A stretch of 64,000 bases of DNA, from positions 100,014 to 164,013 of the forward strand of contig CACMVA010000002.1 in the NCBI GenBank assembly GCA_902617045.1, given 5' to 3'. A program made the position numbers and the translations under genes. This DNA is from an uncultured SAR86 cluster bacterium (GTDB lineage Bacteria > Pseudomonadota > Gammaproteobacteria > Magnimaribacterales > D2472). A model generated the notes under the pieces. It worked only from the letters and a program-made list of their open reading frames with translations, was not told the DNA's origin and did not search any database. Positions 2,444-23,955 of this stretch are shown piece by piece (the stretch's first letter is position 1; the number at the start of each line of letters is the position of its first letter).

Positions 2444-3121
2444 TTACCAAATAATTTTACCTAAATTATGTTCTTCTAAATATTTATTACATTTTGAAAA
2501 ATGTTTTGAACCAAAAAAACCCCTGTATGCAGATAATGGCGATGGATGTGCAGACATTAGAATTAAATTATGTTTGCTATCAATAAATTTTAAATATTTT
2601 TTTGGATGATTTCCCCATAAAATAAAAACTATATTTCTTTTTTTTTGCAAAACTTTTAAAGTTTCTCTAATAAAAATTTCCCAACCAATATTTGAGTGTG
2701 ATCCAGGTTTTGATTCCTCCACAGTTAAAGATGAGTTCAGTAAAAGTACGCCTTGTCTTGCCCAGCTTTTTAAACAACCATCACGATTTTTAGATTTACC
2801 AACATCATTTTTAATTTCTTTATAAATATTTTTTAAAGATGAAGGTATTGGTTCATTTGGTCTTACTGAAAAAGCTAAGCCATTTGCAACACCTTTTTGA
2901 AAATATGGATCTTGTCCAAATATCACTACTTTTGTTTTTGAAAAAGAACAGTATTTGAATGCGTTAAAGATTTGATTGTAAGGCGGACAAATGATCTTAT
3001 TGTTTTCAATTTCTTTAGTTACAAATTTAATTGGGGCATCAATAAGTGACGAAAATGAAGTGTTTTCAAATAAATTTTTCCAATTTTCTTGTATATGTAA
3101 ATCAATGTTTTTTTTGTTCAT
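2444..3121 (-). CDS. ung: uracil-DNA glycosylase (family 1)
   Basis: 225 aa with GQDPYF..NGLAFSV and the HPSPLSAYRGFFG His-loop motif. Confidence 0.9.
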   Translation of the reverse strand: MNKKNIDLHIQENWKNLFENTSFSSLIDAPIKFVTKEIENNKIICPPYNQIFNAFKYCSFSKTKVVIFGQDPYFQKGVANGLAFSVRPNEPIPSSLKNIYKEIKNDVGKSKNRDGCLKSWARQGVLLLNSSLTVEESKPGSHSNIGWEIFIRETLKVLQKKRNIVFILWGNHPKKYLKFIDSKHNLILMSAHPSPLSAYRGFFGSKHFSKCNKYLEEHNLGKIIW

Positions 3122-3135
3122 TTTTGCAATAAATT

Positions 3136-3170
3136 TTATCCACAGAAACTGTGGATAAAGTTATGGATAA
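3136..3170. promoter_or_regulatory. DnaA-box cluster forming a perfect palindrome upstream of ung
   Basis: TTATCCACA (3136..3144) and TGTGGATAA (3150..3158) are perfect consensus boxes in inverted orientation; with the flanking G/C they form a 10-bp inverted repeat with a 3-nt spacer. A third 8/9 box (complement TTATCCATA) lies at 3162..3170. The cluster sits 15-49 nt upstream of the ung ATG. Confidence 0.55.
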
Positions 3171-3418
3171 CTTTATTTATACCATATTAAGTGGCTTAAA
3201 ATAAGGGTTTTTTCTAAGTTGTATAAATTTTGTACAAAAAACATAAAAATAACCTTATATCAATAGTTTACGAATTTTTAATTAATTATATGTATAAAAT
3301 TTATATTAAAATATAATCCCTCTAATAACACTCTTTTATTCTGTTGACAAGTATATTTTTAATAAAGTTATAAAAATTAAATATTAAGACAAATGTTTTT
3401 ATAAAATTTGGACTTTTT

Positions 3419-4591
3419 TTAGCAAATTCTTACACTAAAAACTCTTTTCATTTTTTTTATAGTATCTATTAGTTTCTTTGATGGCTGTAGCTGAAGATCA
3501 ATTAAAGTTATAGCAATTTCATTTCTACTTTTGTTAATCATGTCAGCAATGTTAAGATTTTCTGAAGCAATTTCTCCAGTTATACGACCTATTACTCCGG
3601 GCTCATCTTTATGAACTATAACAAGCCTATTTTCTGTTGTCCTTCCAAGTTTAACTCGAGGAAAATTAACAGAATTTATTATTTCTCCATCTTTTAAAAA
3701 TCTATTTGCTTGTTCTGCTGCCATGATTGCACAATTAACTTCTGCCTCATGAGTGCTTGCACCAAGATGGGGCATTAAAATAACATCTTCATATTCATTT
3801 GATCTTTTTATCATTTCTGGTGTTGGGAAATCAGTCACAAAACAACTGATATTTTTATTTGTGAGAGCTTCTAAAACATCTTCATTATTTACAATAGCTC
3901 CCCTTGATAGGTTAATTAACTTTGCTCCTTTTTTTATGTACTGAAGATTATCCTTTGAAATTAAGTTTTTTGTTTCATCCACCAACGGAACATGAATTGA
4001 GATGTAATCAGAATTAGATAATAGGTATTTTAAATCGTCTGCTTTCTCAACTTCTTTTGGTAATTGCCAAGCAGAATCGATAGAAATCTTTGGATCATAC
4101 CCAATAATTTTCATTCCCATGCTCTCAACTGATTGGGCTAAAAGAGATCCAATTGATCCTAATCCAATTATTCCAATTGTTTTACCCTTTAACTCACTCC
4201 CTTTAAACGTTTTTTTATTTGATTCAACCAGGTTAGTTACATCATTACTGTTTTTTTCTTCTATATTTTGTGTGAATTTGTGTCCTTGAATAATACCTCT
4301 TGAAGATAACAACATTCCACAGATAACAAGTTCTTTGACTGCATTAGCATTTCCTCCTGGAGTATTAAATACTACAACACCCTTTTCAGTAGCCATACTT
4401 ATAGGAATATGGTTTACACCTGCCCCTGCTCGACATATACATTTTAGTGATGGATTAAAGTCTTTCTCAATAAGATTATGGCTTCTTATAAGTAGTGCAT
4501 CCGGATCATTATCATTTTCTATAAAACCATTGTCTTTAAGACAATTAATTCCTTGCAGAGCAATATTATTAAAGATTTTATATGTATACAT
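3419..4591 (-). CDS. serA: D-3-phosphoglycerate dehydrogenase-like D-2-hydroxyacid dehydrogenase with C-terminal ACT domain
   Basis: 390 aa with the NAD Rossmann motif GIIGLGSIGSLLA, catalytic-region motifs LSRG and HLGASTHEAE, and an ACT-like C-terminus (VIVHKDEPGVIGRITGEI). Confidence 0.7.
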   Translation of the reverse strand: MYTYKIFNNIALQGINCLKDNGFIENDNDPDALLIRSHNLIEKDFNPSLKCICRAGAGVNHIPISMATEKGVVVFNTPGGNANAVKELVICGMLLSSRGIIQGHKFTQNIEEKNSNDVTNLVESNKKTFKGSELKGKTIGIIGLGSIGSLLAQSVESMGMKIIGYDPKISIDSAWQLPKEVEKADDLKYLLSNSDYISIHVPLVDETKNLISKDNLQYIKKGAKLINLSRGAIVNNEDVLEALTNKNISCFVTDFPTPEMIKRSNEYEDVILMPHLGASTHEAEVNCAIMAAEQANRFLKDGEIINSVNFPRVKLGRTTENRLVIVHKDEPGVIGRITGEIASENLNIADMINKSRNEIAITLIDLQLQPSKKLIDTIKKMKRVFSVRIC

Positions 4592-21210: not shown

Positions 21211-22098
21211 TTATTCTAGACGTTCTTTGATTCTTGCAGATTTACCGGATCTTTCTCTGAGATAAAATAGCTTAGCCTGACGAACATCACCTTTTCTTTT
21301 TACTTGGATAGAATCTATCATTGGGCTATGAGTTTGGAATGTTCTTTCAACACCGATTCCACTTGAAATCTTTCTCACTATAAAAGAGGAGTTTAGTCCA
21401 GCTTTTTTTACACCCATCACGACCCCTTCAAAAGCTTGTAATCTTGTTCTTTCTCCTTCCCTAACTTTCACAGATACAACAACAGTATCTCCTGGTCTGA
21501 ATTCAGGAAGATCAGTTTTCATTTGTTTTGATTCAAATTCATTGATTATTTGAGAAGGTGTTTTCTCTTCTAAAGAAACTGAAAGCGCCTCTTCAGCAGG
21601 TGCTTCTTCTTCAGCAGGTGCTTCTTCTACAGGAGCTGCTTCTTCAGCAGGTGCTTCTTCTTCTACAGGAGCTGCTTCTTCAGCAGGAGCTGCTTCTTCA
21701 GCAGGTGCTTCTTCTTCTACAGGAGCTGCTTCTTCTACAGGAGCTGCTTCTTCTTCGGCTGGAGTATCTTCGTCAATAGATTCTTTTTGACTAGCAGCAG
21801 ATTCAGCCATTACTGTTGCTGCATCATCAACTGCGCTTGGTGATGGTGATTCATTAAAATGAATATCCCAAGCATCTAATAATTTTGCTTTTGTTAGATT
21901 GATATCTAGCTCAAGTCCATTTTCTTTTGCTACCGCAACTATGTCAGCTTTTTTCATTTTGTTAAGAGCTGATTTTGTAGGAATTTCTCTAGTATCTTCT
22001 ATCCTAGTTTCTTCTTTTTTTGGTTCTTCAGGCGCAGATGAACCACCAAATAATCGGGAAAAAAAACCTTTTTTCTTGTTTTCTTTACTATCACTCAT
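21211..22098 (-). CDS. rplS: 50S ribosomal protein L19 with ~180-aa N-terminal extension
   Basis: The C-terminal ~115 aa are canonical L19 ([47 protein letters not shown]). An in-frame 180-aa N-terminal region has no stop and begins 19 nt after the trmD stop. Confidence 0.85.
21586..21765 (-). repeat. GC-rich tandem coding repeat (A-P-[AV]-E-E units) in the rplS extension
   Basis: Imperfect 15-21-nt units (gcaggtgcttcttc / ggagctgcttcttc). A higher-order 54-nt duplication is visible: cagcaggtgcttcttcttctacaggagctgcttcttc occurs at ~21646 and ~21700. Confidence 0.85.
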
Positions 22099-22117
22099 AA
22101 TATTCGCCTAAAAAGGG

Positions 22118-22849
22118 CTATAGGATAGCCTTAGATGACCATTCTTCCAAGAGTTTTTTTTGTTTTTTTGTTAATTTTATTTTTTTAAGTAAATCAGGTC
22201 TTTTTTTAAATGTTTTAAGTAATGACATCTCAGATTTCCATGCCTTAATCTTTTCGTGGTTTCCAGATAATAATACTTCAGGAACCTTGTTAGAATCAAA
22301 AATTTCAGGTTTTGCATAAACATCTTCTTTGAGTAATCCATTAGAAAAAGTATCTTTCAGATATGAATCCTTATTTCCAAGAGTTCCTGGTAAATGTCTT
22401 GAAATTGCATCAATTAAACATATTGCTGCGTACTCTCCACCACTCAAAATAAAATCTCCTATTGATACTTCCTCATCTACATAGTTATCAATTACTCGTT
22501 GATCAATTCCCTCATATCTTCCGCATATTAATGTCATATTTTTGAGTTTAGATAATGAAATTACTTTTTTTTGAGTTAGTAATTGTCCCTGTGGTGACAT
22601 ATAAATAACTGGTCCAAGTTTTCTTTTATCAATACTTTTAATAGTCTTAATCAATGGTTCTGCCATAATAACCATACCTTCCCCACCTCCGTATGGCTTT
22701 GAATCAATGTTTTTATGCCTATTAGTAGCGTTTTTTCTTATATCAAAAGGTTTAATTGACAATATGTCTTTTTTCATGGCTTTTGAAATCACACCAGAAT
22801 TTAAAATTTTAAATATTTCTGGAAAGATTGTTAAAACATTTATATTCAT
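22118..22849 (-). CDS. trmD: tRNA (guanine37-N1)-methyltransferase
   Basis: Motifs MNINVLTIFPEIF, GRYEGIDQRV and SIGDFILSGGE. The start is trimmed to Met18 of the ORF-track call, just after the rimM stop. Confidence 0.9.
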   Translation of the reverse strand: MNINVLTIFPEIFKILNSGVISKAMKKDILSIKPFDIRKNATNRHKNIDSKPYGGGEGMVIMAEPLIKTIKSIDKRKLGPVIYMSPQGQLLTQKKVISLSKLKNMTLICGRYEGIDQRVIDNYVDEEVSIGDFILSGGEYAAICLIDAISRHLPGTLGNKDSYLKDTFSNGLLKEDVYAKPEIFDSNKVPEVLLSGNHEKIKAWKSEMSLLKTFKKRPDLLKKIKLTKKQKKLLEEWSSKAIL

Positions 22850-22850
22850 T

Positions 22851-23372
22851 CTAGTAATCACTTTGCCAATAAACTTTAAGGACTCTTTCTTTCTTATCAA
22901 CAGAGTCTATAAATTTTTCTTTTATAAATGGTATGAGTCTTTCTTTTTCGTCAACAGAATCAGGTGTTGGTTTAACTATTAAACAATCATTAGCACCAAA
23001 GTTATTAAGTTCTTTCACTTCTCCTAAAATTTCATTTTTATTGAGTCCAATTACGATCATTCCTTTTAAATCATGCCAATATACCTCATCAGATTTAAGC
23101 TCAGGAAGATTTTCAGAAGAAATGTAAAGCTTTATGTTGGTGTATTCTTTAATTTCATCAACACTATCGACGTTTTTTAGTTTAGCTAAAAATTTTGAAT
23201 TAATTTTTTTAATGTATTCGATTGATAATTTATTTTCATTATCTATAAAAATATCATCAATATAGTTGAGAATATTTTCCTTTGGAGAGCAGAATGAGTT
23301 TAGGAAAAATTCTCCCGAAAGACCTCTAGGTTTTCCTATATTAGCAATACAAACTTGTTTATTTTTTTTCAT
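22851..23372 (-). CDS. rimM: 16S rRNA processing protein RimM
   Basis: The [12 protein letters not shown]-terminal motif and a length of ~173 aa fit RimM. The start is placed at ATG 23372, overlapping the rpsP end by 14 nt. The ORF-track N-terminal 47 aa are an alternative-frame reading of the rpsP repeat. Confidence 0.85.
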
Positions 23373-23955
23373 CTTCTGAAGAATCATCTTCAGCTGGAGG
23401 TTCTTCTTCGGCTGGAGCTTCTTCCTCTGCAGGTGCTTCTTCTTCGGCTGGAGCTTCTTCTTCGGCTGGTGCTTCTTCCTCAGCTGGAGCTTCTTCCTCT
23501 GCAGGTGCTTCATCAGCAGGTGCTTCTTCTTCGGCTGGTGCTTTTTCAGCAGGTGCTTCTTCTGCAGGAGCTTCCTCAGCAGGAGCCTCTTCAGCAGGAG
23601 CCTCTTCAGCAGCAGCTTCCTCAGCTTCTTTTGCTAATTTTTCTGCTAATGCAGCTTTTTTGGCAGCAGCTTTAGCCTTTTTTGCTTCAACTTTTGCTGC
23701 GAATTCCTCTGGTGTTAATTTAGCTTCTTTAATTAGCGCACTAACCCTTTCACTAAGTTGTGCACCCTTTGATACCCACTCATCAATTTTTTCGAGATCA
23801 ATTCTAAGTCTTTCCTCTTGCCCATTTGCTGTTGGATTAAAAAAACCCAATCTTTCAATAAATGCTCCGTCTCTAGGACGTCTTTCGTCAGCAACAGTTA
23901 TAAAGTAATAGGGATTTTTCTTTGCCCCACTCCTTGCTAATCTTATTATTACCAT
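23359..23955 (-). CDS. rpsP: 30S ribosomal protein S16 with ~120-aa C-terminal extension
   Basis: The N-terminal ~80 aa are canonical S16 ([35 protein letters not shown]). A Lys/Ala-rich segment and an acidic APAEE repeat tail follow. Confidence 0.9.
23389..23625 (-). repeat. GC-rich tandem coding repeat (E-E-[E]-A-P-A units) in the rpsP tail
   Basis: Repeated gctggagcttcttc / gcaggtgcttcttc units. This is the same unit family as in rplS, 1.6 kb away. Confidence 0.85.

Follow-up and report, generated by a model that had tools for sequence, protein, structure and literature searches.

Why does the rplS gene of an uncultured SAR86 cluster bacterium encode 180 residues ahead of ribosomal protein bL19, do these residues belong to the same protein, and what could they do for the ribosome? 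We addressed these questions in a stretch of 64,000 nt from a member of the Magnimaribacterales (contig CACMVA010000002.1, positions 100,014-164,013), hereafter called the window. A preliminary description of this DNA had placed L19 in the last ~115 aa of a 295-aa open reading frame (ORF) that starts 19 nt after the trmD stop codon; both points hold, as do the other facts of sequence given there. PF01245 (Ribosomal_L19) covers aa 183-293 with 158.4 bits (cut-off 22) over its full length (profile positions 1-111 of 111), TIGR01024 (rplS_bact) scores 154.7 bits against a cut-off of 90.7, and aa 1-180 have no Pfam or NCBIfam match. As judged from the comparison of sequences, SAR86 bL19 is translated as one polypeptide from the ATG 19 nt after trmD, and purifying selection has conserved the fusion, an N-terminal motif of membrane-targeting type and a helix-extended-helix (HeH) domain across the order. 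The parts of the gene, all on the minus strand, are the following.

21211..22098, minus strand: rplS, extended bL19; one 295-aa ORF with an ATG start, stop codon included (ORF listing, Pfam and NCBIfam)
22099..22117, minus strand: trmD-rplS spacer of 19 nt, with a Shine-Dalgarno (SD)-like AGG(C) 8 nt before the ATG (sequence reading)
22042..22077, minus strand: basic, amphipathic motif of membrane-targeting type, aa 8-19, net charge +4 (translation)
21979..22041, minus strand: disordered spacer 1, aa 20-40, with a predicted local distance difference test score (pLDDT) of ~40-55; 21-55 aa in relatives
21853..21978, minus strand: predicted HeH (SAP/HeH/Rho_N-like) domain, aa 41-82, net charge +1 (AlphaFold2)
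21796..21840, minus strand: conserved short motif, aa 87-101, near-invariant in the window's clade
21586..21765, minus strand: acidic A/P/V/E repeat linker, aa 112-171, net charge -24; tandem array, predicted to be disordered (pLDDT ~35-38)
21211..21558, minus strand: canonical bL19 domain and stop codon, aa 181-295 (PF01245, TIGR01024)

Reading frame and conservation of the extension

The extension runs in frame into L19 in 16 of the 19 SAR86 species representatives among the matches listed, giving products of 255-351 aa, and in the remaining three it ends at a contig end. The closest genome among these matches, the single-cell genome AG-359-G11, shows 98% identity over the N-terminal 102 aa, and more than 40 further full-length fused L19 proteins come from independent metagenomes. 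Conservation of the extension in related genomes, which had been named beforehand as a check on the fusion, is therefore found, both in these 16 species genomes and in the fixed place of the N-terminal motif described below. In the segment from aa 95 to aa 200, in-frame ATG, GTG or TTG codons are limited to those of M97 and M193, and neither is preceded by an SD-like sequence, in agreement with the earlier remark that no start lies near the L19 N-terminus and that Met193 lacks an SD sequence. In loci L006 and L009 the interval of -70 to +15 codons relative to FRPGD is free of in-frame NTG, as is the sequence upstream of FRPGD in L042. The spacer between the two genes reads CCCTTTTTAGGCGAATATT and is preceded by the trmD stop codon at 22118-22120; the sequence 5' of the rplS ATG is nearly invariant over 17 related loci. 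For the motif and HeH segments the ratio of nonsynonymous to synonymous substitution rates (dN/dS, Nei-Gojobori) was 0.03-0.12 in most pairs, with values above this range in two pairs only (L006/L008 and L019/L020), and for the L19 domain it was 0.02-0.12. Because the extension is in frame in relatives, no internal start is conserved, the upstream sequence is near-invariant and dN/dS is low, we regard the extension as translated and constrained. Internal initiation of L19 was rejected on the ground that no in-frame start is conserved among relatives.

Our initial protein search returned only proteins of 73-189 aa and zero complete L19 fusions. Database entries of this kind could suggest an artefact, that is, two genes merged by an error of sequencing or assembly, or an internal L19 start behind an untranslated upstream frame: many are stand-alone N-terminal ORFs of 100-190 aa or L19 calls of 120-200 aa, and some annotations begin at an in-frame GTG (P0328). 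The short entries, however, lie at contig ends or are frameshifted inside the repeat of nanopore+pilon assemblies. Further entries proved to be loops or chimeras that arose via the repeat which rplS has in common with the S16 or L31 gene. On long contigs the short ORFs come from nanopore+pilon assemblies in which the repeat contains either a single indel or a compensating pair, and in these cases (L001-L003, 4001-5100) the acidic repeat runs on in the L19 frame. Such assembly artefacts also account for the stops and frameshifts between extension and L19 in relatives, a pattern that had been put forward as evidence that would count against the fusion. The ORFs are intact in Illumina single-cell genomes, where they span 255-351 aa, the GTG of P0328 is missing in the window and in L006, L009 and L042, and the extension is under purifying selection, which together leave an artefact hardly conceivable. 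A separate gene upstream of rplS was also rejected, the short ORFs being contig ends, nanopore frameshifts and repeat-driven misassemblies.

The acidic repeats common to rpsP, rplS and rpmE disturb assembly systematically, through contig breaks and loops, chimeras of L31 and L19, and frameshifts in nanopore data. Locus L047 is an assembly loop with the order extension, S16 tail, rimM, trmD, extension, which arose because the acidic repeat is common to rplS and rpsP. Two further candidates, P0193 (L31+L19) and P0194 (L19 extension with an L31 tail), proved to be chimeras and not real genes.

Motif, HeH domain and linker

The resemblance of aa 8-19 to the membrane-targeting motifs of MinD and FtsY, proposed in the preliminary description, is confirmed by the DNA of E. 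coli MG1655, in which MinD ends EEKKGFLKRLFGG and FtsY starts MAKEKKRGFFSWLGFG, followed by the acidic A domain. Like the MinD sequence (KKGFLKRLFGG), the L19 motif is terminal and nearly conforms to KK-G-F-hydrophobic-x-R-L-F-G-G, and its hydrophobic moment of 0.36 lies between those of the E. coli MinD targeting sequence (0.41) and the E. coli FtsY N-terminus (0.25). In contrast to MinD the motif is N-terminal instead of C-terminal and comes without an ATP-driven dimerisation switch; avidity would need polysomes or other contacts. On a helical wheel (100 degrees) drawn from the sequence, F12, L16, F13 and F17 span 100-240 degrees. In 60 of 61 full-length relatives residue 11 is glycine, so the position of the motif is fixed, and within it G11, F13 and S14 are invariant. 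This fixed position together with the purifying selection on the segment indicates that the motif of L19 is more than chance.

We scanned 185,579 species genomes for the exact motif core and found it at the start of Pseudovibrio FtsY, where an acidic A domain again follows, and in the A-region of an archaeal FtsY from the Methanosarcinales (both Pfam SRP54-verified). The exact core is also present in an insert of an OadA-like carboxylase of Bacteroidales (L024, L027, L032, L038, L040), in BamC (including PDB entry 9pxg) and the C-tails of BamE and PBP1a from other phyla (L026, L030, L033), and in DUF892 proteins. In exported Sel1-type proteins (P0132, P0146) it is repeated up to 11 times with acidic spacers in between.

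The likeness to FtsY extends to what comes after the motif: both proteins begin with a Met-proximal basic/aromatic motif, and the long disordered stretch behind it has much Glu, Ala, Pro and Val in each case, with comparable overall composition and net charge (E 22%, A 19%, P 8% and net -31 for the L19 extension; E 28%, A 16%, P 8% and net -46 for the E. coli FtsY A domain). The N-terminal helix and A domain of FtsY bind anionic lipid and SecY, the A domain by way of the SecY loops C4/C5 (PMC4602035). One could therefore picture the extension as a mimic of the FtsY A domain that docks on the cytosolic loops of SecY and on lipid, pre-positions the ribosome at the translocon and partly replaces or assists targeting by the receptor of the signal recognition particle (SRP); the order of the parts, with a lipid-binding motif ahead of an acidic disordered region, and the core shared with Pseudovibrio FtsY would both fit. 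The similarity is limited, however, to the 12-residue motif and composition, with zero FtsY hits at E<=1e-3 in the profile search or in the PDB sequence search. Furthermore, the L19 motif sits on a ribosomal protein and not on an SRP-type GTPase, and the HeH domain inserted between motif and acidic region is no part of FtsY. We consider such mimicry improbable. The earlier comparison of the acidic repeats with the FtsY A domain accordingly stands for composition and for the tandem array, while no homology beyond motif and composition was detected. No ftsY gene was found within the 64-kb window.

Residues 41-82 form the sole folded part of the extension in the AlphaFold2 models, with helices H42-46, H50-59 and H70-82 at pLDDT ~90 in two independent runs on different alignments; the rest is predicted to be disordered and not docked on L19. 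Invariant residues of this segment include TK..LL..W. The segment had been described as Rho_N/SAP-like, and the helix-extended-helix fold is what remains of that assignment: models for Rho_N (PF07498), SAP (PF02037) and HeH gave zero matches in the window protein even at E<=1 and zero among 47 family members at E<=10, where SAP30_Sin3_bdg appeared only weakly (best E 0.002). Foldseek against the PDB listed mostly the SAP domains of FAN1, Hcc-1 and MKL1 and the N-terminal domain of Rho, with a best E of 0.77; the best matches superimpose at 1.5-2.6 Å over 33-45 residues, but owing to the small size of the domain none is significant. We searched 1.84 billion representative proteins with a profile of the N-terminal module and obtained only 76 hits at E<=1e-3; beyond the L19 fusions it reached P0180 (Pfam Rho_N, 9e-12) at E 4.9e-5 and P0191 (Pfam SAP, 6e-12) at E 8.3e-4. 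Among PDB sequences the profile found the Ku70 SAP domain at E 0.03.

With known members of the SAP/HeH/Rho_N group (Ku70 SAP, Rho N-terminal subdomain, RHON1, FAN1 SAP) the L19 domain shares a size of ~40 residues, the succession helix-extended loop-helix and the pattern L..MKKxDIv..AK..GL....TKxxLL. It differs from them in scoring below the Pfam gathering thresholds, in a longer inter-helix loop and in near-neutral charge, and nucleic-acid binding would follow by fold analogy only. On the basis of the models the domain is SAP/HeH-like at the level of the fold and falls outside the families as defined by hidden Markov models. We know of no SAP/HeH/Rho_N fusion to a bacterial ribosomal protein. 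A relative of the L19 HeH domain was also observed at the C-terminus of P0186 (L044-L046, gene 4001-4393), a 130-aa protein with an N-terminal transmembrane helix whose gene lies amid many small ORFs, probably on a phage contig.

The conserved short motif at aa 87-101 follows the HeH domain in the window's clade and precedes it in other SAR86 clades (e.g. P0129), a difference in placement which implies that it is movable. The acidic linker is encoded by a tandem array at 21590-21754 that can be read as 9.2 copies of 18 nt or 3.1 copies of 54 nt. The whole stretch from HeH to L19 (~aa 82-180 here) varies from 33 to 158 aa in relatives, with net charges of -8 to -63. Two antisense ORFs over the repeat (21558-21779 and 21899-22111, both on the plus strand) are leucine-rich mirror images of the GAA/GCT repeats. 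From aa 181 onward the protein aligns with solved bacterial bL19 chains from their residue 1-3; in all of the solved bacterial bL19 structures the L19 domain starts within the first 22 residues, and long N-extensions are found in organellar homologues only.

The junction LSVSLEEK(T/S)P is conserved among relatives. A conserved junction could mark a pro-protein that is cleaved after translation to free a membrane/HeH protein and an L19 of normal size, and the N-terminal processing of bL27 in Firmicutes is a precedent; the junction is an indirect sign, and nothing direct favours cleavage. Neither a protease partner nor a recognisable cleavage motif was identified, the length of the linker varies freely (33-158 aa) as would be expected for a tether, and a lineage with an acidic-only extension, described in the next section, keeps ~65 aa with nothing to release. 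Cleavage thus appears very improbable.

Acidic tails on other SAR86 ribosomal proteins

The order rpsP-rimM-trmD-rplS is common to the window, the SAR86 loci and E. coli. Two further genes of this operon are relevant here.

22118..22849, minus strand: trmD, 243 aa from MNINVLTIFPE; relatives are called at 243 aa with PF01746
23359..23955, minus strand: rpsP, bS16 (aa 1-80) with a 118-aa C-terminal extension (Pfam, NCBIfam, tandem repeats)

The trmD ORF as listed has 260 aa and begins at a TTG further upstream than MNINVLTIFPE. Between the two genes, the rimM ORF as listed (22851-23513, minus strand, 220 aa) has a Lys-rich N-terminus of 43 aa, which is the S16 acidic repeat in another frame; as RimM of relatives is called at 173-180 aa, its start in the window probably lies later, with a slight overlap of the rpsP end.

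The extension of bS16 consists of a Lys/Ala helix and AEEAP-type acidic repeats ending in DSSEDEKK. It is present in every SAR86 locus read (including L006-L018, L043 and L047), with total lengths of 155-280 aa. A third ribosomal protein, bL31, has 145 aa with an acidic C-tail in one SAR86 sublineage (L049, 1501-1938). In a 265-aa form of bL31 the pre-HeH and HeH segment of L19 is copied into the acidic tail without the membrane motif (L050-L052, L041); the gene lies in a priA-rpmE-dut context at 3001-3798 in both L050 and L051 and at 1243-2040 in L052, on three independent contigs of 7-43 kb. Between the copied segment and an L19 extension the nucleotide identity is 94%, and the copy has the look of a recent duplication. 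That the 265-aa protein is itself a chimera was ruled out by the three contigs, by the rpmE context and by the compared references, which share no k-mer of >=13 bases across the junction.

An abundant lineage represented by P0389 (at least 52 contigs; L055-L057, gene 3501-4046) encodes an L19 of 181 aa with an acidic-only N-extension of ~65 aa, MTESDKETITNEE, from which motif and HeH domain are both absent; synteny is normal and the trmD-rplS spacer has 21 nt. A neighbour-joining tree of TrmD+L19 (370 columns, E. coli as the root) places this lineage as the sister group of the window's clade (100% bootstrap), nested among lineages with motif and HeH, a position that implies secondary loss of both.

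These observations open another reading, in which the acidic tail of a generic 'hairy ribosome' (bS16, bL19, bL31) is primary and ancestral and tunes surface charge, solubility, spacing or assembly of ribosomes within the small and crowded cell, while motif and HeH domain bind a cytosolic partner such as an assembly factor, mRNA, rRNA or a protein. It would account for the acidic tails on S16, found without exception in the loci read, and on L31, for the acidic-only L19 extension in a nested and abundant lineage, for the copying of HeH onto L31 without the motif, and for the presence of the motif in non-cytosolic and non-membrane contexts. Against it stand the conservation of the motif, which equals that of L19 in strength, and its fixed place at the very start of the protein; charge tuning would hardly account for a sequence identical to that of a real FtsY N-terminus, and most other carriers of the motif act at membranes. 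Taken together we regard this reading as unlikely, though it is the main rival of the leash model set out below.

A possible leash and its meaning

Tethering of L19, and with it the ribosome, to a membrane or to nucleic acid by the extension is plausible. In the model that we favour tentatively, and to which we give somewhat less than an even chance, the extension acts as a flexible leash with weak, avidity-dependent membrane binding and with the HeH domain as a second contact. Once L19 sits in the 50S subunit, the acidic linker would be repelled by rRNA and would project from the ribosome as a flexible leash of ~100 residues, the free end of which would carry the HeH domain and the amphipathic peptide. 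Being of the type of the FtsY N-helix and the MinD targeting sequence, this peptide would insert into the anionic inner membrane. For MinD, membrane binding via the targeting sequence requires dimerisation (PMC6803595), and because of this need a single helix per ribosome would be expected to bind weakly, which would make attachment reversible and avidity-driven. Avidity would favour polysomes, so that translating ribosomes would be enriched near the membrane and the SecYEG/YidC insertases in the very small, membrane-protein-rich cells of SAR86. The HeH domain would provide its second contact to nucleic acid, by family precedent, or possibly to a protein partner; since the bL31 copy is the HeH module alone, this contact could work without the membrane peptide.

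Several observations weigh against the leash model. The motif is promiscuous and marks membrane-proximal proteins generally, on both faces, rather than the inner leaflet specifically, as can be seen from its presence in the periplasmic BamC, BamE and PBP1a and in the carboxylase insert, DUF892 and Sel1-type proteins. Of the structural checks suggested in the preliminary description, the folded HeH domain and the hydrophobic face at 100-240 degrees were recovered, whereas aa 8-19 are not predicted to be helical in isolation (AlphaFold2, pLDDT ~55-60), and the hydrophobic moment of 0.36 is moderate. The HeH domain lies below the Pfam thresholds for Rho_N and SAP, is non-significant in Foldseek and has a net charge of only +1. 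Finally, an acidic tail is generally shared by S16, L19 and L31 of SAR86, and the acidic-only L19 of the nested lineage implies that the module is dispensable there.

The model invites comparison with mitochondria, where mL45/Mba1 is the element of the mitoribosome that keeps the large subunit at the membrane into which its products insert; mL45 is Tim44-like and located at the tunnel exit. The analogy is functional only and without homology, as Pfam scans of the window protein and of family members gave no Tim44-like domain, and the L19 element would be a flexible leash with putative membrane binding, quite unlike a rigid dock. A bacterial counterpart of mitoribosome tethering, encoded in a ribosomal protein and keeping polysomes at the inner membrane, and possibly also at DNA or mRNA, through avidity, is a possibility that we would sooner doubt than assume. 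A membrane element and a small domain of nucleic-acid-binding type are joined in one polypeptide in Noc of B. subtilis and in the eukaryotic HeH/LEM proteins of the inner nuclear membrane. The L19 extension differs from these in having no homology to the ParB-like Noc, in an amphipathic peptide instead of a transmembrane helix as the putative anchor and in the ribosome as a third cargo, and DNA binding would again be a matter of analogy. Lineage-specific extensions of ribosomal proteins are well known, and the N-extensions of organellar bL19 and the C-extensions of Thermus/Deinococcus bL19 are likewise clade-specific terminal additions to a conserved core; none of the known bL19 extensions is reported to carry a motif of membrane-targeting type together with a SAP-like domain. 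In the literature searched we found no description of the SAR86 L19 extension, nor of any bacterial ribosomal protein with such a peptide and a SAP-like domain; the preliminary description had supposed as much for gammaproteobacteria. As far as these searches show, a bL19 of this architecture is undescribed.

The lineage without the module and the lineage with a second HeH domain on bL31 offer natural genotypes for comparison, and a cultured SAR86 isolate, HIMB1674, exists (PMC11582366). For annotation, the repeats shared by rpsP, rplS and rpmE mean that public databases contain many truncated or chimeric SAR86 calls for marker ribosomal proteins in wide use in phylogenomics and read recruitment. 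To our knowledge, the accepted routes of bacterial ribosomes to the membrane are confined to nascent chains, SRP/FtsY and the translocon. If the leash model is true, ribosomes would be localised by a new route that is encoded in the genome, namely by a core ribosomal protein equipped with a targeting-type peptide and a SAP-like domain. The SAR86 order makes up a large share of surface-ocean bacterioplankton, and the extension would then physically underpin the coupling of transcription, translation and membrane insertion in bacteria that rank among the most abundant of the ocean.

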